This document shows positions 1,449 through 13,923 of a stretch of DNA of 37,387 nucleotides, piece after piece. Within the stretch, counting starts at the first letter, position 1, and each line of letters begins with the position of its first letter. A model generated the notes under the pieces. It searched no databases and had not been told where the DNA came from. It saw nothing but the letters and a program-made list of their open reading frames with translations. Made by a program: the position numbers and the translations under genes. The stretch comes from a virus. Taxonomy: Duplodnaviria; Heunggongvirae; Uroviricota; Caudoviricetes. Where the stretch lies: IMG/VR virus record IMGVR_UViG_2563366935_000005. The stretch is one strand, 5' to 3'.

Positions 1449-2018
1449 CTATTTAACATACTTGACTGTTAAACTTATAATTTTACCAATTATTTCAATG
1501 TCTTCTATCTTACATTCGAAGGCTCTGTTTCCACCCTCGACGAAGATTCTTCCACCGGGTAAACGAGTAATGTCACGGATCGTTATTTCGCCATCAATAC
1601 TTATTACCCATTTACCATCACGTATATCATCAAATTCCTTATCACAAATAAATTCAGAATTATTATCTGTGATTACAAAAAGATTCTTGAATGCCGACGG
1701 TAGAAATTCTCTATCGAAAATATAAAAACCGTCTTCACACAAGGCCCCATCAGATAATACATATTTAGCAACTTCCATAGTATTTGTATTACCTGAAGTT
1801 TGCTTTGAACCATGCCCGGTTGTGAGCCAATTAAGCGAGGTGCCTGTTTCAAGGGCGCACTGGATTACCCATTCTGCTGGGAATGAGTCACGCATGTAGC
1901 GTGTGGCGAGTGTACTTTTAGAGATTCCTAAATGATCGCACAACGCCTGTCGAGTCTTGAATCCATAAGCTTCTACCATGCGCTCTATGGCGCCTCGTCC
2001 GCCTTTCTCCAAATTCAT
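1449..2018 (-). CDS. cI: CI-type immunity repressor (186 CI-like), 189 aa
   Basis: Size and position between int and the divergent early operon match 186 CI; N-terminal HTH-like segment (TRQALCDHLGISKSTLATRYMR); ATG at 2016-2018 with GGAG RBS; stop TAG at 1449-1451. Confidence 0.8.
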   Translation of the reverse strand: MNLEKGGRGAIERMVEAYGFKTRQALCDHLGISKSTLATRYMRDSFPAEWVIQCALETGTSLNWLTTGHGSKQTSGNTNTMEVAKYVLSDGALCEDGFYIFDREFLPSAFKNLFVITDNNSEFICDKEFDDIRDGKWVISIDGEITIRDITRLPGGRIFVEGGNRAFECKIEDIEIIGKIISLTVKYVK

Positions 2019-2042
2019 GGTCACTCCAAGTGAACTTTTATC

Positions 2043-3721: not shown

Positions 3722-3948
3722 TGGCTGATGCAATGGATCTCGTACAGCAGCGCGTTGAAGAAGAACGCCAGCGCCATATCCGTGCAGCCCGTGCCAAATC
3801 ACCGGGCGTGTCACGCGTACTTTGCATTGAATGTGAAGCGCCAATTCCGCCAGCACGACGCCGCGCCATTCCGGGAGTGCAGCTTTGCATTACCTGTCAG
3901 GAAATCGCAGAACTGAAAGGCAAACATTACAACGGAGGTGCTGTATGA
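3721..3948 (+). CDS. TraR/DksA-family C4 zinc-finger protein, 75 aa
   Basis: CxxC-N17-CxxC motif (CIECEAPIPPARRRAIPGVQLCITC); translationally coupled to the neighbouring genes. Confidence 0.6.
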   Translation: MADAMDLVQQRVEEERQRHIRAARAKSPGVSRVLCIECEAPIPPARRRAIPGVQLCITCQEIAELKGKHYNGGAV

Positions 3949-4802
3949 GCACCATCCTGAAATGGGCGGGAAATAAAACCGCCATTATGCCAGAACTGAA
4001 AAAATACCTTCCTGCTGGCCCGCGACTGGTTGAACCTTTCGCGGGTTCCTGTGCTGTGATGATGGAAACGAATTATCCCAGCTATCTGGTTGCGGATATT
4101 AATCCTGATTTAATCAACCTCTATAAAAAGGTTGCCGCTGATTGTGAATCGTTTATATCTCGCGCCAGAGTTTTATTTGAGATCGCAAACAGGGAGGTGG
4201 CTTATTACAACATAAGGCAGGAGTTTAACTGCTCAACTGAAATTACTGATTTCATGAAAGCGGTATATTTCCTGTATCTCAATCGTCACGGTTACCGTGG
4301 TTTATGTCGCTATAACAAGAGCGGACATTTCAACATTCCCTACGGTAATTATAAAAATCCGTATTTCCCTGAAAAAGAACTTCGCACATTTGCAGAAAAA
4401 GCCCAGCGAGCAACGTTTATCTGCGCCAGCTTTGATGAAACGCTGACGATGTTGAAGGCGGGAGATGTGGTGTATTGCGATCCGCCATATGACGGTACGT
4501 TTTCCGGTTATCATACTGATGGTTTCACTGAAGATGACCAGTATCACCTGGCATCCGTTCTTGAACATCGGTCATCAGAAGGACATCCGGTCATTGTTTC
4601 TAACAGTGACACATCCCTGATCCGTTCGCTGTATCGCAATTTTACTCACCACTATATCAAGGTAAAACGCAGCATCGGTGTGGCAGCTGGCGAGGGTAAA
4701 TCAGCAACAGAAATCATTGCTGTTTCCGGGCCGCGCTGCTGGATGGGATTTGATTATTCGCGTGGCGTGGATAGTTCTGCCGTGTACGGAGTACGTGCAT
4801 GA
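3945..4802 (+). CDS. dam: DNA adenine methyltransferase (Dam-like N6-adenine MTase), 285 aa
   Basis: [12 protein letters not shown]-terminus, AdoMet motif PFAGSCAV and catalytic DPPY motif (VYCDPPYDG); ATGA overlaps with both neighbours. Confidence 0.85.
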
Positions 4803-7213
4803 GTCATGCCGATATGAACAACTGCTGCGGCTTTAACGAGGCTGCCGCAGCATTCTCATGGAACAGCCCGAAAAAGGCCATTAACCCTTATCTGGACCCG
4901 GCGGAAGTTGCGCCGGTTTCTACGCTTTCAAACCTGATCACTCTGTACGCTGCCGATAACGAGCAGGAACAGTTGCGCCGCGAGGCACTGAGTGATCAGG
5001 TCTGGGAGCGTTATTTCTTTAATGAATCACGTGATCCTGTCCAGCGCGAAATGGAGCAGGATAAGCTCATTAGCCGGGCAAAGCTGGCGCATGAGCAGCA
5101 GCGTTTTAATTCAGACATGGTCATTCTGGCGGACGTCAACGCCCAGCCTTCCCATATCAGCAAGCCGCTGATGCAACGTATTGAATACTTCAGCAGCCTG
5201 GGCAGGCCAAAGGCTTATTCCCGCTATTTACGTGAGACGATTAAGCCATGTCTGGAACGACTGGAGCATGTACGCGACAGTCAGCTATCTGCATCTTTTC
5301 GCTTTATGGCAAGCCATGAAGGGCTGGACGGCCTGCTGATCCTGCCTGAAATGAGTCAGGATCAGGTGAAACGCCTGTCCACCCTGGTAGCTGCGCATAT
5401 GAGTATGTGCCTTGATGCAGCTTGTGGTGATTTGTATGCCACCGATGACGTTAAGCCAGAAGAAATCCGCAAGACATGGGAAAAGGTGGCAGCGGAAACC
5501 CTGCGTCTGGATGTCATCCCACCTGCGTTTGAGCAACTCCGTCGGAAAAGAAACCGCCGTAAACCCGTGCCCTATGAACTCATTCCGGGTTCGCTGGCGC
5601 GTATGTTGTGCGCCGACTGGTGGTATCGGAAATTATGGAAGATGCGTTGCGAATGGCGGGAAGAGCAGTTGCGCGCTGTTTGCCTGGTCAGCAAAAAAGC
5701 ATCTCCTTATGTCAGCTATGAAGCCGTGATGCATAAACGTGAGCAGCGCCGTAAGTCGCTGGAGTTTTTCCGTTCTCATGAACTGGTGAACGAAGACGGC
5801 GACACGCTGGACATGGAGGATGTGGTAAACGCCAGCAGCAGCAACCCTGCGCATCGCCGCAATGAGATGATGGCCTGTGTTAAAGGTCTGGAGCTTATCG
5901 CGGAAATGCGCGGTGACTGCGCCGTTTTCTACACTATCACCTGTCCGTCGCGTTTCCATTCCACGCTAAATAACGGCAGACCAAACCCGACCTGGACAAA
6001 CGCGACGGTAAGACAAAGCAGCGATTATCTGGTCGGCATGTTTGCTGCATTTCGTAAGGCGATGCACAAAGCCGGGTTGCGCTGGTATGGCGTGCGGGTG
6101 GCTGAGCCGCATCATGATGGCACAGTTCACTGGCACCTGTTGTGTTTCATGCGCAAAAAAGACCGCCGTGCCATCACTGCATTACTGCGTAAGTTTGCCA
6201 TCCGTGAAGACCGCGAGGAGCTGGGCAATAACACTGGGCCGCGCTTTAAGTCTGAGTTGATTAACCCGCGCAAAGGAACGCCGACAAGCTACATCGCGAA
6301 ATATATCAGTAAGAACATTGACGGTCGTGGTCTGGCTGGCGAGATCAGCAAGGAAACGGGTAAATCTCTGCGTGATAACGCTGAATACGTGAATGCCTGG
6401 GCGTCTCTGCATCGTGTTCAGCAATTCCGCTTCTTTGGTATTCCGGGGCGTCAGGCTTACCGTGAACTTCGCTTGCTGGCTGGTCAGGCGGCAAGGCAAC
6501 AGGGTGACAAAAAAGCAGGTGCGCCGGTACTGGATAACCCGCGTCTTGATGCCATTCTGGCTGCTGCTGATGCTGGTTGTTTTGCCACCTACATCATGAA
6601 GCAGGGCGGCGTACTGGTTCCCCGTAAATATCACCTCATCAGAACCGCTTATGAAATCAACGAAGAGCCGACCGCCTATGGCGATCACGGCATTCGTATT
6701 TATGGCATCTGGTCACCCATTGCAGAGGGCAAGATCTGCACTCATGCAGTGAAGTGGAAAATGGTTCGTAAAGCCGTTGACGTTCAGGAGGCGGCAGCCG
6801 ACCAGGGCGCTTGCGCCCCTTGGACTCGTGGCAATAACTGTCCCCTTGCTGAAAATTTGTACCAACAAGGGAAAGACAAATCAGCTGATGGGGATACCAG
6901 AACGGATATCACCCGCATGGATGACAAGGAATTGCACGATTACCTGCACAGTATGAACAAAAAAGAGCGCCGGGAACTGGCTGCAAGGTTACGCCTGGTG
7001 AAACCGAAACGGCGTAGAGACTACAAACAGCGAATTACAGATCATCAGCGACAGCAGCTCGTCTATGAACTGAAGTCCAGAGGATTTGATGGCAGCGAGA
7101 AAGAGGTCGATTTACTCCTTCGCGGTGGCAGTATTCCGTCAGGAGCAGGCCTGCGTATCTTCTATCGGAACCAGCGTTTGCAGGAAGATGATAAGTGGCG
7201 GGATCTGTATTAA
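4799..7213 (+). CDS. A: Replication initiation protein A (rolling-circle nicking endonuclease, P2 gpA-like), 804 aa
   Basis: Large ORF at the end of the early operon; HUH-type motif [15 protein letters not shown] and [10 protein letters not shown] region; size similar to P2 A. Confidence 0.9.
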
Positions 7214-7307
7214 TTACGCGGGTTAACAATTCGTGCTCTTAATAATACCAGGCATATCAGGCTGATGAACGTAAAAAAACGTTTTACATCAGTAAGATTA
7301 TTATATA

Positions 7308-7323
7308 CTGTAAATATAAACAG
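7308..7323 (+). promoter_or_regulatory. LexA (SOS) box CTGT-N8-ACAG (tactgtaaatataaacagtg)
   Basis: Perfect CTGT/ACAG arms with an AT-rich 8-bp spacer, 43 bp upstream of the 7366 ORF; matches the LexA consensus TACTGTATATATATACAGTA at most positions. Confidence 0.6.
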
Positions 7324-7365
7324 TGGTTATGTATACAGTATTGCTTTGGTGTCATAGGAGGAAAG

Positions 7366-7554
7366 ATGCAGGACTATTTTTTGGAGTCTTTGAAGCTCCA
7401 GCGCATTGATTTTTTTCTTAAGCTTGTAGCGGCTAGTGAGTGTAGTGATGAAGAGAAGGGGCTGGCCCTGCAGTGGGTTTCTGAACTGACAGATGAACTC
7501 ATGGCAAAAATCAGAACCCATGAATACAACCGCTCAATGGATGTCATCAGCTGA
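7366..7554 (+). CDS. Small SOS-operon protein (62 aa), candidate Tum-like antirepressor module
   Basis: ATG with AGGAGG RBS directly downstream of the LexA box; position corresponds to the 186 tum locus; no motif recognised, so function is inferred from context only. Confidence 0.4.
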   Translation: MQDYFLESLKLQRIDFFLKLVAASECSDEEKGLALQWVSELTDELMAKIRTHEYNRSMDVIS

Positions 7555-7564
7555 GGTGACTTTT

Positions 7565-7798
7565 ATGCGCATTGAAATAATGATCGATAAAGAGCAGAAG
7601 ATTAGCCAGTCTACACTGGACGCCCTTGAGTCCGAGCTTTACCGCAATCTGCGCCCCCTGTATCCCAAAACGGTAATTCGTATCCGCAAAGGTAGCTCTA
7701 ACGGTGTGGAACTGACCGGACTGCAACTGGACGAAGAAAGAAAACAAGTGATGAAAATTATGCAGAAGGTCTGGGAGGACGACAGCTGGTTACACTAG
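7565..7798 (+). CDS. DinI-like protein, 77 aa
   Basis: MRIEIMIDK...DALESELYRNL...VWEDDSWL resembles E. coli DinI (MRIEVTIAK...DALAGELSRRI...TWESADDWF); GAGGTGA RBS; second gene of the LexA-box operon. Confidence 0.7.
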   Translation: MRIEIMIDKEQKISQSTLDALESELYRNLRPLYPKTVIRIRKGSSNGVELTGLQLDEERKQVMKIMQKVWEDDSWLH

Positions 7799-7804
7799 CG
7801 AACG

Positions 7805-7839
7805 TTGCGGACGATAAAACTGGTTTTTATCGTCCGCAA
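7805..7839 (+). terminator. Perfect 15-bp-stem hairpin after the DinI-like gene (no U-tract)
   Basis: ttgcggacgataaaa / ttttatcgtccgcaa inverted repeat with a 5-nt loop, read directly; lacks a downstream T-run, so it may be a terminator or a protein-binding or processing site. Confidence 0.3.
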
Positions 7840-8004
7840 GGTTGAACAACGAGCCGCGTGAGGCGTTAGAAACGGGTAGTGAAAAGTGATTTAAGAATGC
7901 CTTGTTCCCCTGAAACTTTGGCCTATGCAACAACATTCGACAGCTTTCTTGATTATCATAAGTAACTTGAAGTTCAGGGACGATTCTGATGGTATACGTG
8001 AAAA

Positions 8005-9204
8005 ATGTATCGTGTGTTGCTTTGGCAAAAAGGAGTTTTAGTGGACAACGGCTCAATCACCTTCTTTGATATTACTGCTTGTGGGTTTTATCGTTTAAAG
8101 AATAAACCCGAAGAGCTTGATTATAAATTCGGCGATCTTATGGGGGTTTTGGACGATTTAGAAGGGTGGCTCAAGGATAAAAATTTTGAGCAGACTCTCC
8201 CATGGAATAAAGAAGAACAACCTCTGCGAACACGAGTTTACAGTCGAGGCCTTGTGAGGGACAGCCAGACTAAAGATGCAGTAATTGTTTTATACCGTGA
8301 AGTGGGGAACGGTAACGGAATACATGGTATTAAGGTCGGTTCAAAAGTAAGTGGTGATAGTAAAGGAACCATTAGGGCGGGAAGAGAACATGGTGAGGAT
8401 AAAATAATTTGGGGTGAACCCTGCTATTACTGGATTATTCCTGAGTTGAATAAAATAGCATCAATCAGATTCCCCCATTCTTTCGCTGATACTTATCTCT
8501 TCGCACAATACTTCATTCAGCATGTAAATAATAATAGTAAGTTAGGTAAAAGAACGAAATCTAAGCGTACATTTGAATCAGCTAAGACCCCTGGTCGTTG
8601 TGTGGATGTCTACAATACTAAGTTTCAATATAAAGATGGCAAAAATGAGATAAACTGTATCTTCAAGTTTGTATTGGAAGAAACAAAACTTAAAGCCGCT
8701 GAGGAAAACTTTGAAAGGTTAAGGCATAAAATTACACACACATTGATAAAGGATACAACGGTAATAAACCAAAATGACACAAGGCAACCATTGTTGAAGC
8801 TAACAAGTGTAGCTTTAGCATCTCTGGTGGGTGAAGAAAAGCGTAATAAGCTTATTGGGGCACCTCCTGTTTTGGAGCGGCCTCGTAAAATTGAAGTTAA
8901 AATTGACGGTGCACCATCATCGGATGAGCTTCGAAATCTCTTCTCAATGAGAGGTGAAGAGTCTGAATGGGATGTGGGTTTTTTACTGGCTGATCGTGCT
9001 AATCCGGTTTGGCTCAGTAGCTATGTAGCCAGGACTAAACTTCCTCTTCAAGATTCGGATGGGTTTGAGCATTATTCAGCGCGTTTTTTACTGGATGAAA
9101 TAAACAAAATTCGTGATGATTTGATTAGTGAAGTAAAATATGCTGAGGAAGCATCCATTAAAGAATCTGAAGCTGCATCCACAAAAAAGATAGCGGAAGG
9201 TTGA
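8005..9204 (+). CDS. Hypothetical soluble protein (399 aa), first gene of a two-gene cargo cassette; candidate defence or abortive-infection sensor
   Basis: AT-rich ORF unrelated to P2 core genes; an alternative GTG start at 8041 has a strong AAGGAG RBS; stop TGA overlaps the ATG of the downstream membrane protein. Confidence 0.6.
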   Translation: MYRVLLWQKGVLVDNGSITFFDITACGFYRLKNKPEELDYKFGDLMGVLDDLEGWLKDKNFEQTLPWNKEEQPLRTRVYSRGLVRDSQTKDAVIVLYREVGNGNGIHGIKVGSKVSGDSKGTIRAGREHGEDKIIWGEPCYYWIIPELNKIASIRFPHSFADTYLFAQYFIQHVNNNSKLGKRTKSKRTFESAKTPGRCVDVYNTKFQYKDGKNEINCIFKFVLEETKLKAAEENFERLRHKITHTLIKDTTVINQNDTRQPLLKLTSVALASLVGEEKRNKLIGAPPVLERPRKIEVKIDGAPSSDELRNLFSMRGEESEWDVGFLLADRANPVWLSSYVARTKLPLQDSDGFEHYSARFLLDEINKIRDDLISEVKYAEEASIKESEAASTKKIAEG

Positions 9205-9205
9205 T

Positions 9206-9742
9206 ATGACAGAAACGGAAGGTTTGATAATAACAGTTGCAAAACAGCAGGCGATTAATTTTGTTGCTGTTGTTTTGTGCTGCGTTATAAGCTATTTTTC
9301 GTTCAAAAGTTTTTCCTATAATGATGCAAAAGATATTTTAGGTGCGCTTATAAATATTTCAGCATCTATATTCACTATTGTCGGTTTATGGGTCGGTTTT
9401 TTATATCCGAATGCAATGAATAGTATTGTTAAGGATGATGTAAGTTATATAAAAAATGAGCATGACTCACCAAGAATAGAGAAATTAGTTTATACAATAA
9501 TCACATCTGCTTGTGTTATGGCTGGGATTCTAATTTTCTTTTTGGTTAAGGCAGTGTTTTATGCATTACCTGTTTATCAAGCTAATAAAGACTTGTTTAA
9601 ATACATTGGTATTTTCTTCATTTACTTTATTAGCTGGATGCAATTAAAATGCGTTATGAGCCTGATTTTGAGTAATTTACATTTTGTTAATCACTTACAT
9701 GGACGTTTAGCAAAAGCGAAATTAGAACACTATGATGAATAA
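9206..9742 (+). CDS. Small polytopic membrane protein (178 aa, about four TM helices); candidate membrane effector of the cassette
   Basis: Four hydrophobic segments (about residues 17-33, 44-67, 94-121, 134-157); GGAAGG RBS; translationally coupled to the 399-aa ORF. Confidence 0.6.
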   Translation: MTETEGLIITVAKQQAINFVAVVLCCVISYFSFKSFSYNDAKDILGALINISASIFTIVGLWVGFLYPNAMNSIVKDDVSYIKNEHDSPRIEKLVYTIITSACVMAGILIFFLVKAVFYALPVYQANKDLFKYIGIFFIYFISWMQLKCVMSLILSNLHFVNHLHGRLAKAKLEHYDE

Positions 9743-10051: not shown

Positions 10052-11086
10052 ATGGATAAAAGATATCAGGTTTTTGTTAGTTCAACTTTTGCTGATCTTG
10101 AAGAAGAAAGACAGGAAGTAATGCAAGCACTGCTGGAGCTTGATTGTATGCCAGCAGGAATGGAATTATTTCCAGCAACAAATAGTGATCAGTGGAGTTT
10201 AATAAAAAAAATAATTGACGATAGTGATTATTATATTGTTATCTTGGCAGGGCGTTATGGTTCAATTGGTCCTGATGGAATAAGCTATACAGAAATGGAG
10301 TATCGTTATGCTTTGGAAACTGGTAAGCCAGTTATAGGTTTTATTCATAAAGATAAAAGTAACCTCCCCGCAAAACGTTGTGAGTCAAACCCTGAAGGCG
10401 TAGAAAAACTAAAGGCTTTCGAAGAGCTAGTTAAAACAAAATTATGTCGTTTTTGGGAGTCTCCTGCAGAATTAGGTAGCCAGGTTAGCAGAAGTTTGAT
10501 TAGACTAATTAAAGAATGTCCTGCAATTGGGTGGGTTAAAGGAAATTTAGTAACTAATGATGGTGATGCAAAGGAAATATTGAAATTAAAAAGGCGAATT
10601 GAGGAGCTTGAAAGTCAACTTGTATCAAGTATGACTGAAGCGCCTGCAGGTGCAGAAAAACTATCTCAAGGAGATGAGCTTTTTGAATTGGATTATGAAT
10701 TCTGTGTGTCGCCTACAGAATGGAGACATAATGGTGAAGAATATACCGATAAGGTCAAATTAAGCTGGAACGATATTTTTTCATATGTTTCGCCTTTGAT
10801 GATAGATGAGATAGTGGATGATAAGCTATATAGTGCTTTAAATAACTGTGTGCGAAATGCAGTTCAAGATATCATCTATGAGGATTTTAAAGATATGAAT
10901 TTATTATCTTTAAAAGTATCTAATTCTGATTTTCAAACAATAAAAGTGCAGTTTAGGGCGCTTGGGTTAATTATTAAAAGTGAAAAGAGTAGAAGTGTTA
11001 AAGATAAAGGTACTTATTGGACTTTAACACCGTATGGCGAAAATTTAATGACAACATTGAGAGCGATTAAAAAAACTTTGGTATAG
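10052..11086 (+). CDS. DUF4062-like N-terminal domain protein (344 aa) with an uncharacterised C-terminal region containing a coiled-coil-like segment; candidate single-gene defence protein
   Basis: N-terminus YQVFVSSTFADLEEERQEVMQALLELDCMPAGMELF...ILAGRYGS matches the DUF4062 pattern as I recall it; AT-rich; own promoter and terminator; not part of the P2 core gene set. Confidence 0.6.
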   Translation: MDKRYQVFVSSTFADLEEERQEVMQALLELDCMPAGMELFPATNSDQWSLIKKIIDDSDYYIVILAGRYGSIGPDGISYTEMEYRYALETGKPVIGFIHKDKSNLPAKRCESNPEGVEKLKAFEELVKTKLCRFWESPAELGSQVSRSLIRLIKECPAIGWVKGNLVTNDGDAKEILKLKRRIEELESQLVSSMTEAPAGAEKLSQGDELFELDYEFCVSPTEWRHNGEEYTDKVKLSWNDIFSYVSPLMIDEIVDDKLYSALNNCVRNAVQDIIYEDFKDMNLLSLKVSNSDFQTIKVQFRALGLIIKSEKSRSVKDKGTYWTLTPYGENLMTTLRAIKKTLV

Positions 11087-11090
11087 ATAA

Positions 11091-11126
11091 CAAAGGCCGT
11101 TCATATATGAACGGCCTTTGTTTTAT
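11091..11126. terminator. Bidirectional rho-independent terminator between the DUF4062-like gene and Q
   Basis: Perfect hairpin caaaggccgttca-tatat-tgaacggcctttg with a T-run on the plus strand and an A-run upstream. Confidence 0.7.
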
Positions 11127-12157
11127 TGTGTGGGAAAGCTATATGATTCGAATTTTATAATAACTTTACCAAGCCATTTATTTACTTCTTGTATATGCTT
11201 TTGCAGTGGTGTTAGCTCATTTCGCACAAAGACGCGGCTGGCCTTCTCCACATCCCCAAACCCCCCGACATTATTAGGCATAATCCCCATCATTTGCGGT
11301 GGCACACGATGCGCCGCCATCATGTCATCCCGGCTCACGTTCTTGATATTCAAAAACTCATCCTTCGCTGCGACCTCTGACAACGGGATAATCTGAAGCC
11401 CGTCCTTTTTGCCGTTAGGCGAGTACATAAACAGGTTGCGGAAGTTGCCTGGACCTTTGGCGCTTTTCATCGCGTTGCGGAGGTTGTTCACATCCTCCTG
11501 GTTCTGCGCGGCATCGGTCATATACATGATGAAGCCTGCATGACTGCCGTTAATGTAATACTTGCGGCGGAACAGCGTGGCAGACTCGTTGAGCAGGGCG
11601 GATGGAATAGCAGAAAGATAACCGGGCAGGCCGTAGATCTCCTGGTTGATGTCCGGTTCCATCAGATGAAAGATGCTGCCTTTCGTGAACTGATATGGCT
11701 GCGTGGTCATACCGTATTGCACAAACCAGTAGGTATCCAGGTCTAACCCGCGTCGGGTGTATTTTGCCAGGGCAGGTTCAAGGGCGATAACTTCACCGAA
11801 GCGGTTCGTGCGTTTCTCCAGGTAGGCGTTACCAAATACCAGATAGTCCTGCACAAAACGCGAAAAAGCCTGCTGGCTGAGCAGCGGGTGAGGGATGTAG
11901 GTGCTGGTCAGAATGTTGCACTTTACTGCAATCGGGGAACTATGATGCACGGCAGCGCGGAAGGTGCGCGCCAGTCCGTCAAAGCTGACGGGCGGTTCAT
12001 ACCAGCGGTCCATCTGTACGCATTCCACATAATCCAGCAGTTCTCGGCGGTCCAGAACAGGAACGGGATCGCCGAAGCTGAATGCTTCGGCTGTAGTTTG
12101 ACTTTTAAGCTGGATCTGTTTCGTCGCCGCAGCGCGGTTCTTCTTACTCTTTCCCAT
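11123..12157 (-). CDS. Q: Portal protein (P2 gpQ-like), 344 aa
   Basis: Length equals P2 Q; conserved position next to the terminase gene P; ATG at 12155-12157 overlaps the P stop. Confidence 0.9.
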   Translation of the reverse strand: MGKSKKNRAAATKQIQLKSQTTAEAFSFGDPVPVLDRRELLDYVECVQMDRWYEPPVSFDGLARTFRAAVHHSSPIAVKCNILTSTYIPHPLLSQQAFSRFVQDYLVFGNAYLEKRTNRFGEVIALEPALAKYTRRGLDLDTYWFVQYGMTTQPYQFTKGSIFHLMEPDINQEIYGLPGYLSAIPSALLNESATLFRRKYYINGSHAGFIMYMTDAAQNQEDVNNLRNAMKSAKGPGNFRNLFMYSPNGKKDGLQIIPLSEVAAKDEFLNIKNVSRDDMMAAHRVPPQMMGIMPNNVGGFGDVEKASRVFVRNELTPLQKHIQEVNKWLGKVIIKFESYSFPTQ

Positions 12158-13923
12158 CAAAAAATCTCCACAATATTGCTGGTATTGGCGGATTCGCCCT
12201 GCAGCGGTTCGTTAAACAGTGCGTGCATCGTTGCCCAGGCCAGATCGGCGTGGCTGGCTTCTTCGCTGCGGCTGGCTTCATAGGTCGGGCGGTTGCCACT
12301 GGCGGTGGTGGCGCGACGGATTGCCATAAAGGACTGCGCTATGTCGGTGTGTCCGGCGTCAAACTCCAGACGGCGGTGGCTGATAATGTCGTAGGCCTTG
12401 AGTACCAAGGCGTTTTTAACGTTGGGGTTGTAGACAAACTCCCGGACGGCAGGAAAAAACGCTTTCACGTTCTCGTAAACCCCGTGACCAACGCCGGTTG
12501 AGTCGATACCGATATAGGTCACGTTGTACTGTTCGGTCAGTTTTTTGATGGCGTCAGCCTGGGCGCGGAAGTCCATTCCGCGCCACTGGTGACGCTCAAG
12601 AATGCGGAACTTACCGCCCGGCACGGCTGGCGGCGCCACCACCACGCATCCGGCGCTGTCGCCGTTCTGCGTACCTTTCGCCGGGTCATATCCGATCCAC
12701 ACTTCGCGCCAGCCAAACGGGCGCAGGGCCAGTGCATGAAAGTCGGTCCAGACTTCCCAACTGTCCACCATGCACGCCTGCAGCTCGCTGAGCGGGAACA
12801 CAGACGCGAGATCGTCCACGAACTCACACATCAGCAGGTTCTGGTATTCGTCCGGGCTGTACTCCATGCGCAACTGGTCGAGGTCGAACAGGTTACAGCC
12901 GCCGCGCACCGCATCTTCCACAGTGACTATCTGGCGGTACTGCCCGTCTGCGCACAGCAGGCCGGGGGCCAGATTGCTGTGGGACAGGTCGATGTCCACC
13001 TTATCGGCTTTGTTGCGCCCTCGGTTGAACAGTGCACCGGACCAGAACGGATAAGCACTGTGTGTCAGGCTGGATGGCGTGGAAAAATAGGTTTGTCGCC
13101 ATTTTTTGTGAATAGCCATACCGGAAGCCACTTTGCGCAGCTCCTGGAATTTCGGTATCCAGAAATATTCATCCAGATACAGGTTGCCGTGGTAACTCTG
13201 GGCCGTGCGGGCATTGGTGCCGAGGAAGTACAGTGTGGCCCCGTTAGGAAGCACCATCGGATCGCCTTTCAGCTCCACCTCCACTTCTTTGGCGAAGTCG
13301 ATGATGTACTGCTTAAAGACGTGGGCCTGAGCCTTGCTGGCGGAAAGGAAAATCTGGTTACGCCCGGTTAGCAGGGCGTCAATCAGGGCTTCACGGGCAA
13401 AATAGAAGGTCGCGCCGATCTGGCGTGACTTCAGCAGGTTGCGGATGCGGTTGGTTTTTCCGGCTTCCCACCAGTGGCGCTGGTAGTTGAACATGGAGGA
13501 ATGGAAGATTTCTTCCAGCTTCTCAATCTGTTCATCGGTGAAAACGTTCTTTTCCGGCTGACGGCGCGGGCCTTTGTTGCGGTTGGCGACGTTAGGGTTT
13601 AAGTCGGCTTCGTTGCCGCCATTGTTAAACTTGCCGATCCGCGCATGGCGCTCCGACTGGCGCGCCAGCAGGTCAATCTCTTTGAAATCTTTCCCTTCTT
13701 TGTGCTCCTTCATAATGAGCTGACAGTAGCGTGCGGCGGTGGTGAGCTGCATCTGATCCAGCGGCCCATAGTCACCCCACTTGTCGCGTTTTTTCCAGCT
13801 GTGAACGGTTGCAACTTTCTCGCCCAGCATTTCAGCAATGCGGGCGACGCGGTATCCCTGAAAGTACAGCAGCATGGCCTGCCGACGGGGATCGAGATCT
13901 GCGGGTGTCAGTGTGGTGTTCAT
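12157..13923 (-). CDS. P: Terminase large (ATPase) subunit (P2 gpP-like), 588 aa
   Basis: Size and position match P2 P; divergent from O across a late-promoter region. Confidence 0.9.
   Translation of the reverse strand: MNTTLTPADLDPRRQAMLLYFQGYRVARIAEMLGEKVATVHSWKKRDKWGDYGPLDQMQLTTAARYCQLIMKEHKEGKDFKEIDLLARQSERHARIGKFNNGGNEADLNPNVANRNKGPRRQPEKNVFTDEQIEKLEEIFHSSMFNYQRHWWEAGKTNRIRNLLKSRQIGATFYFAREALIDALLTGRNQIFLSASKAQAHVFKQYIIDFAKEVEVELKGDPMVLPNGATLYFLGTNARTAQSYHGNLYLDEYFWIPKFQELRKVASGMAIHKKWRQTYFSTPSSLTHSAYPFWSGALFNRGRNKADKVDIDLSHSNLAPGLLCADGQYRQIVTVEDAVRGGCNLFDLDQLRMEYSPDEYQNLLMCEFVDDLASVFPLSELQACMVDSWEVWTDFHALALRPFGWREVWIGYDPAKGTQNGDSAGCVVVAPPAVPGGKFRILERHQWRGMDFRAQADAIKKLTEQYNVTYIGIDSTGVGHGVYENVKAFFPAVREFVYNPNVKNALVLKAYDIISHRRLEFDAGHTDIAQSFMAIRRATTASGNRPTYEASRSEEASHADLAWATMHALFNEPLQGESANTSNIVEIF

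Follow-up and report, generated by a model that had tools for sequence, protein, structure and literature searches.

A LexA-controlled tumA–dinI gene pair as the likely SOS-induction operon of a Fels-2/DuoHS-type P2-like prophage

Gene content and products of the operon

We analyzed a 37,387-nt stretch of Caudoviricetes DNA (IMG/VR virus record IMGVR_UViG_2563366935_000005; this whole stretch is hereafter referred to as the window) in which replication gene A is directly followed by a LexA box and two short open reading frames (ORFs), the second of which encodes a DinI homolog. From the 150-bp gap behind gene A onward, the order of elements is gene A, TACTGTAAATATAAACAGTG, AGGAGG, a 62-codon ORF and a 77-codon ORF (Table 1). 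This position, directly 3' of gene A and next to a 186-type CI repressor, is shared in synteny with phages 186, PSP3 and Fels-2. A first-pass annotation of the sequence had reported a LexA box at 7308–7323, followed by a 62-aa ORF and a DinI-like ORF at the place occupied by tum in phage 186. This description was borne out: the core CTGTAAATATAAACAG is found exactly there and the fuller 19-mer is perfect, the coordinates of both ORFs are exact, and gene A precedes the pair, just as it precedes tum in 186.

We consider it highly likely (probability of roughly 0.88) that this element is the operon through which a P2-like prophage of the Fels-2/DuoHS type, with a CI repressor of the 186 kind, is induced by the SOS response. 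The arrangement is already known, having been described in Fels-2 and PSP3 and genetically tested in a near-identical Escherichia coli HS prophage (DuoHS). The sequence anatomy of the operon, the homologies of its products, the conservation of both the gene split and the operator, and the purifying selection acting on the genes are established here, and to the earlier descriptions the analysis adds a colicin-type double operator, statistics for the homology with Tum, a co-variation with the N-terminal domain of CI and a LexA-like box in front of int.

The downstream ORF encodes a DinI homolog. Its product matches PF06183 over the entire profile (positions 1–63 of 63; 81.3 bits against a cut-off of 24.2 bits), and E. 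coli DinI (PDB 1GHH), with which the first-pass annotation had proposed an alignment, was matched full-length (E 2.7e-6 over residues 1–75). The protein carries an acidic C-terminal WEDDSW motif, corresponds to positions 71–148 of the 151 positions of phrog_189 and is 41% identical to residues 71–145 of 186 Tum. A function as a modulator of RecA filaments is most likely, judging from its membership of the DinI family. An alternative start at the ATG at 7493, which would give a 101-aa ORF, was rejected, since this ATG lacks a Shine-Dalgarno sequence, relatives do not conserve the extension, and the Pfam match starts only at residue 38 of the longer product.

For the 62-aa product of the upstream ORF, Pfam and PADLOC returned nothing, and PHROGs places it in phrog_698, a family of unknown function. 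The gene is labelled 'hypothetical protein' or 'unknown' in E. coli genome entries and in most of the phage records inspected, and two Klebsiella phage records label it 'levan regulatory domain protein'. For the alignment with 186 Tum that had also been proposed, BLASTP came back empty and a profile–profile comparison was positive. The family set of the 62-aa protein, drawn from a library of 1.8 billion representative proteins, comprised 66 clusters at E ≤0.001, nearly all of them of 55–75 residues, and that of the Tum N-terminus includes many stand-alone members of 63–78 residues named 'Tum protein'. Comparison of the two with hhalign paired residues 3–44 of the window protein with residues 3–44 of Tum (96% probability, E 4.7e-9, 42 columns, ~19% identity), with a score of 45.8 against 9.6 for the reversed Tum alignment and at most 16.6 for 30 column shuffles. 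A shared core can be recognized by eye, reading (L/I)-x-R-(I/V)-(D/E)-hhh-(R/K)-L, where h is hydrophobic, and then C-x5-(E/K)-x-(L/I)-A-(L/I)-x-(W/L)-(I/V)-(A/S)-E-(L/I), and through intermediate members of the family, P0147 for example, the relationship becomes plain by eye. An AlphaFold model of the 62-aa protein is a two-helix hairpin (pLDDT 86), for which a Foldseek search of the PDB yielded only generic helical hairpins (E ≥0.7).

Both genes are under purifying selection. In comparisons of the window with relatives that are 84–89% identical in protein, the ratio of nonsynonymous to synonymous substitution rates (dN/dS) was 0.08–0.11 for the 62-aa ORF and 0.03–0.11 for the dinI-like ORF; the full ranges obtained were 0.08–0.12 and 0.00–0.11, respectively.

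A natural split and a double LexA operator

The first-pass annotation had noted that the two ORFs lie in different frames, which they do, and had offered two explanations: a genuine two-gene variant or a frameshifted tum. With a stop codon at 7552–7554, a 10-nt spacer (GGTGACTTTT) and an offset of +1, the two parts do not form the single ORF of the fused 186 Tum. In 186 both parts are contained in one 146-aa protein, which is accompanied by in-frame truncated products, and in the window the dinI frame remains open over the 75 nt 5' of its ATG, reaching back into the 3' end of the small ORF; both observations would fit a fused gene of the 186 kind that a frameshift near 7540–7570, natural or introduced by sequencing, has inactivated. 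Inspection of this junction revealed instead a natural split that relatives share. Fels-2, DuoHS and approximately 1,100 E. coli genomes have an identical junction; of the 5,426 complete genomes of E. coli covered, 1,125 contain the 541-bp region, in most cases at 95–99% identity and in about 1,000 of them at 95% or more. Each ORF has its own Shine-Dalgarno sequence (Table 1), dN/dS is about 0.1 for both, and the split gene is functional in DuoHS.

The frame relation between the two ORFs also varies among relatives, the offset being 0 in PSP3, 613R3 and MLG42, +1 in the window, Fels-2 and DuoHS, and +2 in SEN8 and ST437phi4.1, with a purine-rich spacer of 3–12 nt between the two ORFs in every relative compared. 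These variable offsets argue against a recent frameshift and against a conserved recoding signal. Furthermore, ESSI2_ev015, ESSI-2 and ENT90 carry the small gene beside a LexA box and lack any dinI; this marks the antirepressor part as a module in its own right, one that 186 happens to have joined to a DinI domain. A frameshifted tum is thus effectively excluded, and the shared junction, purifying selection, variable offsets and stand-alone small genes together identify a genuine two-gene variant. The three stand-alone loci lie at 701–913 (ESSI2_ev015), ~701–868 (ESSI-2, where the small ORF is unannotated) and 859–1098 (ENT90), and the next gene encodes a regulator or the portal protein.

A fused protein might alternatively be produced by programmed recoding, through a +1 frameshift or read-through of the stop codon, and be the real antirepressor. 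The open dinI frame does overlap the last 65 nt of the small ORF, and 186 makes several in-frame Tum products. Yet no single recoding mechanism could be conserved across frame relations that differ among close relatives, no slippery motif is visible by eye before the TGA at 7552, the small gene occurs in ESSI-2, ESSI2_ev015 and ENT90 without a dinI to be fused to, and the upstream gene of PSP3 has been reported to carry the activity alone (PMC3121763), all of which render recoding extremely improbable.

The genuine two-gene arrangement has named precedents. According to Lemire et al. (2011), citing Bunny et al. (2002), tum is split in two in Fels-2 and PSP3 (PMC3121763), and the PSP3 record annotates tumA as 'similar to 5' end 186 tum; UV induction of prophage' (UV, ultraviolet) and tumB as 'similar to dinI and 3' end of 186 tum'. 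As in the window, the small PSP3 gene associated with UV induction precedes the DinI homolog behind a LexA box, which makes PSP3 the named precedent for the split state. Its two halves, however, are in the same frame, separated by a single TAG followed by ATT ATG, whereas those of the window are offset by +1, and PSP3 TumA is of the 186-like sequence type and not of phrog_698. Fels-2 STM2728/STM2726.1 and DuoHS ECHS_RS04495/ECHS_RS04500 represent the same module as the window, alike in double box and junction; the Fels-2 DNA is ~97% identical to that of the window, but its CI is only 41% identical overall. The LexA-repressed operons of Gifsy and Fels-1 (GfoA, GftA) likewise keep a small antirepressor and a DinI homolog as separate genes, but in these lambdoid prophages dinI comes first, the reverse of the order in the window, and the antirepressors and repressors belong to other families (PMC3121763).

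Upstream of the 62-aa ORF, the pattern TACTGT-W8-ACAGT is matched perfectly at 7306–7324. Allowing up to two mismatches, 0.04 matches to this pattern would be expected in the window, and none of 100 shuffled sequences equalled the observed count. The bare core CTGT-N8-ACAG, of which the window contains one copy, is weak evidence alone, because 0.5 matches are expected by chance (at least one in 44 of 100 shuffles). Conservation across relatives is, at the level of sequence, a stronger argument than these window statistics: of the 12 loci examined, 11 have a CTGT-N8-ACAG box 36–66 nt 5' of their homologous small ORF, among them those of the distant 186, PSP3 and Cronobacter ESSI-2. In the twelfth, Erwinia ENT90, the LexA box overlaps the annotated start codon of the small gene, which is probably mis-called.

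With regard to the operator, the first-pass annotation was right about this first box and overlooked a second one, which overlaps it by 5 bp. The two 20-bp boxes form a predicted double operator (7306–7340) that corresponds, at the level of its bases, to the colicin type. All aligned relatives of the Fels-2 type keep the second box; 186, PSP3, 613R3, ESSI-2 and ESSI2_ev015 lack it and have a single box. A plasmid search with the 46-bp stretch 7300–7345 returned hundreds of small mobilizable plasmids with 85–88% identity over 42–45 bp, and in the three plasmids opened the match lies immediately 5' of the genes for colicin N (cna), colicin R (cra) and an E1-like colicin. When phage and Col-plasmid sequences were aligned, the invariant columns clustered in the ~35-bp operator and the flanks did not align; between the window and the colicin loci, likewise, nothing aligns outside a ~40-bp operator. 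The colicin N, R and E1-like operators share with the window a double LexA operator that includes the non-consensus junction CAGTGGTTAT, for which a full-text literature search recovered unrelated papers only. They differ in what they control, driving a toxin and lysis operon where that of the window drives a prophage antirepressor. Because the study describing colicin regulation (PMC2994835) prints no operator sequences, the colicin box positions rest on the aligned Col-plasmid DNA together with its general statement. Colicin double operators are bound by two LexA dimers, allow no detectable basal expression and are expressed in a small fraction of cells (PMC2994835), and by analogy both boxes of the window would be occupied by two LexA dimers.

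The promoter of the operon can be placed by comparison with p95 of 186, annotated in the 186 GenBank record with a -35 element, an 18-nt spacer and a -10 element, TACTGT, that lies inside the LexA box. In the window, TTTACA stands 17 nt 5' of TACTGT (7306–7311), the putative -10 element, and this putative -35 hexamer is kept in Fels-2, MLG42, SEN8 and ST437phi4.1.

The operon is followed by a strong hairpin that the terminator scan missed because it lacks a T-run. The 186 GenBank record annotates a partial terminator, t95a, at the equivalent position, and the hairpin of the window is possibly a weak or partial terminator of the same kind. The sole structure flagged by the terminator scan, a weak hairpin at 7543–7560 across the junction of the two ORFs, was regarded as a chance occurrence. 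In a separate observation on dinI, the start of this gene in Escherichia phage 500465-1 (~890–915 of the extracted locus) reads ATGCGCATTGAATAA, one base shorter than ATGCGCATTGAAATAATG in the window. The shorter reading allows four codons before a stop, and the ORF annotated in the record is another, longer one; this may be a real dinI frameshift and hence a natural tumA-only variant.

Probable repressor target and induction of the prophage

Damage inducibility, dependence on LexA cleavage and a requirement for the 62-aa gene have been established by others on near-identical elements. In Salmonella with Fels-2, the STM2726–STM2728 operon was among those differentially expressed, and STM2727, listed with genes of the LexA regulon, rose 5.5-, 11.1- and 14.8-fold as the dose of the mutagen MX was raised (PMC2225428). 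According to the Phollow study (PMC12055606), neither a DuoHS Δtum mutant (ECHS_RS04495) nor a lexA(Ind-) mutant lyses or forms virions after mitomycin C. ECHS_RS04495, annotated as a 'hypothetical protein', is 189 nt long and directly precedes the DinI-like gene. Of the published primers, NHR24 ends at the ATG following GGTGTCATAGGAGGAAAG and NHR28 joins that ATG to TGAGGTGACTTTTATGCGCATTG; these sequences match the window at 7346–7368 (one mismatch) and 7552–7574 (exactly), so that the deletion takes out the 62-aa ORF precisely and leaves dinI and its ribosome-binding site in place. DuoHS and the window are identical at 61 of 62 positions of the small protein, at all 77 of the DinI-like protein and throughout CI (Table 1), so that the window element is practically the one already tested.

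The idea of a LexA-controlled, Tum-like module at this locus is thus upheld on several sides, by the profile homology to the Tum N-terminus, the 186-type CI, the mutagen induction of the Fels-2 operon and the DuoHS deletion phenotype. The two properties on which the first-pass annotation had staked this idea, similarity to the Tum N-terminus and inducibility by DNA damage, are both in evidence, the former at the profile level and the latter in the published induction of the Fels-2 operon and of DuoHS.

Tum of phage 186 works by sequestering CI: its binding is reversible and prevents CI from contacting DNA (Shearwin 1998, cited in PMC3121763). The 186 locus compares closely with that of the window: tum has the same position after gene A, a LexA box over the -10 element and a 186-type CI, and its N- and C-terminal parts are homologous to the 62-aa protein and the DinI-like ORF, respectively. 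By analogy, CI would be the target of the 62-aa protein, and a co-variation with the N-terminal domain of CI suggests the same. Seven phages encode a small protein at least 98% identical to that of the window, and their CIs are only 38–54% identical overall to the window CI. This divergence is unevenly distributed, with 68–77% identity to the window in the N-terminal helix-turn-helix domain (70–77% for Fels-2, 4LV2017 and Cartapus) and 22–41% in the remainder; among the seven, 35 of 75 N-terminal positions are invariant, versus 10 of the remaining 115. The CI of 186 is 41% identical to the seven in the N-terminal domain and 26% in the remainder. In these sequences, antirepressor type tracks the type of the CI N-terminal domain, a pattern that fits an antirepressor blocking DNA binding and predicts cross-induction among prophages sharing the domain.

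Several points weigh against the proposed identification of the operon and its antirepressor. BLASTP aligned the 62-aa protein with neither 186 Tum nor PSP3 TumA, and the homology therefore rests on profiles, with which alone the similarity to the 186 Tum N-terminus is detectable; the same search, however, fails between PSP3 TumA and 186 Tum, though the former is annotated as similar to the tum 5' end, indicating that pairwise search is too weak for these short helical proteins. A generic promoter scan called no sigma-70 site at 7150–8050, because the putative -10 element matches only three of six positions, and the promoter placement accordingly follows from the 186 p95 layout. The co-variation with CI is weak as an argument alone, being confounded by the generally better conservation of DNA-binding domains, and the literature yielded no demonstration of direct CI binding by the small protein of this clade. 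The assignment of antirepressor activity to the upstream gene of PSP3 is a personal communication (E. Christie, in PMC3121763). Finally, the available part of the DuoHS source (PMC12055606) contained no complementation of the deletion, and a polar effect on dinI is formally possible.

This last point bears on whether the DinI-like protein itself might drive induction, for example by stabilizing RecA filaments, with the small protein as an accessory and the DuoHS phenotype a polar one. The DuoHS deletion does end immediately 5' of dinI, and DinI proteins bind RecA filaments (PDB 7YWA, beside 1GHH). The deletion nevertheless retains the Shine-Dalgarno sequence and the start codon of dinI, and small genes are also found behind a LexA box where no dinI is present. 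The 186-type CI, moreover, has no annotated RecA-cleavage mechanism, and induction of 186 consists in Tum sequestering CI; the 186 GenBank record assigns modulation of SOS induction to the truncated, DinI-only products and inhibition of CI DNA binding to the full-length protein only. Induction by the DinI-like protein is consequently very unlikely.

It is also conceivable that the 62-aa protein is required but does not sequester CI, leading for example to CI proteolysis or acting on Apl, CII or operator DNA. The CI-binding role of this clade is argued by analogy, the identity to the Tum N-terminus is only ~19% over 42 columns, and the predicted helical hairpin is a generic fold whose structural neighbors are uninformative. 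On the other side, the protein is homologous to the very part of Tum that is missing from the truncated, modulator-only products, the operon has the same genomic position, control and CI type as in 186, and antirepressor type co-varies with the CI N-terminal domain. We regard a mode of action other than sequestration as unlikely.

Under the preferred reading of the element as a Tum-like SOS-induction operon, LexA bound to the overlapping boxes in the lysogen would cover the -10 element and the start region and keep the operon tightly off. DNA damage would activate RecA, and self-cleavage of LexA would then release a bicistronic mRNA with one ribosome-binding site per cistron. The 62-residue helical-hairpin protein, as the equivalent of PSP3 TumA, would be the antirepressor, binding CI non-covalently, most likely at its N-terminal DNA-binding domain, and keeping it off its operators, whereupon the early lytic promoter would fire and the prophage be induced. 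The DinI homolog, the equivalent of PSP3 TumB and of the C-terminal half of 186 Tum, would not be the inducer; it would most likely act on RecA filaments and thereby modulate the strength or duration of the SOS signal.

Neighboring genes and implications

The coordinates of the operon and of the surrounding features are collected in Table 1.

Table 1. Features of the SOS-induction operon and its surroundings in the window.
Feature	Position	Strand	Remarks
Tyrosine-integrase-like ORF	leftward from ~1053	-	by comparison with annotated E. coli HS integrase ECHS_RS26175
cI, 186-type immunity repressor	1449–2024	-	33% identical to 186 CI, E 9e-38; 188/188 identical to DuoHS CI
Replication gene A	4799–7213	+	Phage_GPA 1.4e-127; last gene of early rightward operon
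Putative -35 TTTACA of SOS promoter (186 p95 analog)	7283–7288	+	placed from 186 p95 layout
LexA (SOS) box 1, TACTGTAAATATAAACAGTG	7306–7325	unstranded	perfect TACTGT-W8-ACAGT; overlaps putative -10
LexA box 2, CAGTGGTTATGTATACAGTA	7321–7340	unstranded	right half perfect ACAGTA, left half degenerate; 5-bp overlap with box 1
Shine-Dalgarno AGGAGG for 62-aa ORF	7356–7361	+	4 nt before ATG 7366; kept in relatives
tumA-type gene, 62-aa putative antirepressor	7366–7554	+	phrog_698 E 3.6e-38; homologous to 186 Tum N-terminal part
Shine-Dalgarno-like GAGGTGA for dinI-like ORF	7553–7559	+	overlaps tumA stop codon
dinI-like gene (tumB type), 77 aa	7565–7798 (stop 7796–7798)	+	Pfam DinI PF06183 E 6.6e-23
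Strong hairpin after dinI, 15-bp perfect stem, no U-tail	7801–7843	+	-26.3 kcal/mol, z -6.55, 0/200 shuffles fold as well
Portal gene	11123–12160	-	Phage_portal; just after DUF4062 cargo gene

The int gene may have a LexA-repressed promoter of its own. A promoter-like sequence (TTGACA-17 nt-AAAAAT, 10/12) lies on the minus strand at 1078–1106, ~25 nt 5' of the int start codon, and its spacer is filled by CACTGGTTATACATACAGTA, a LexA-like box (1083–1102) of the form CTGG-N8-ACAG that agrees with the consensus at 16 of 20 positions. It is the only other match in the window with up to two mismatches to the LexA 19-mer, against 0.04 expected, and the CTGG and ACAG positions are invariant in phages 4LV2017, KP12 and 813R9, despite differing DNA 5' of the -35 element. 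This candidate promoter provides a small, testable lead.

Between dinI and the portal gene lies a variable cargo position. Here the two plus-strand genes directly after the tum–dinI operon (8005–9742) match the PADLOC candidate defense system PDC-M18, a 399-aa protein corresponding to component A (9.7e-31) and a 178-aa membrane-like protein to component B (2.8e-18). A third cargo gene on the same strand (10052–11086) encodes a 344-aa protein whose N-terminal domain is DUF4062 (1.5e-29) and for which PADLOC gave no match. In Fels-2 and E. coli HS, other genes occupy this position in place of PDC-M18 and the DUF4062 protein.

Upstream of the operon, a putative DNA adenine methylase-like ORF (3885–4802, plus strand) immediately precedes gene A, with which it overlaps. 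At the equivalent position a DNA adenine methylase is annotated in both Fels-2 and E. coli HS, and 186 carries another gene. Between cI and int, a minus-strand ORF (1242–1433) encodes a 63-aa protein with a signal-peptide-like N-terminus, six cysteines and no Pfam match, and E. coli HS encodes a 63-aa hypothetical protein (ECHS_RS23290) at the equivalent position. The product may be a secreted peptide expressed in the lysogen.

The most useful practical consequence of this analysis is an annotation fix, replacing 'hypothetical protein' with tum/tumA antirepressor. The double SOS box and its likeness to colicin operators suggest a tighter and later induction than in 186. We tentatively raise the possibility, which we rate as less probable than its absence, that the SOS wiring of Fels-2/DuoHS-type prophages is more elaborate than that of 186, combining the double operator with a LexA-controlled int and a TumA acting on the CI N-terminal domain. 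If so, the double operator would be a cassette shared with Col plasmids that sets a high, switch-like induction threshold, LexA would control excision capacity directly via the int promoter, and one TumA could induce co-resident prophages with very different CI C-terminal domains. The module sets when a very common enterobacterial prophage family, present in about one-fifth of complete E. coli genomes, exits the chromosome after DNA damage, for example during antibiotic treatment.

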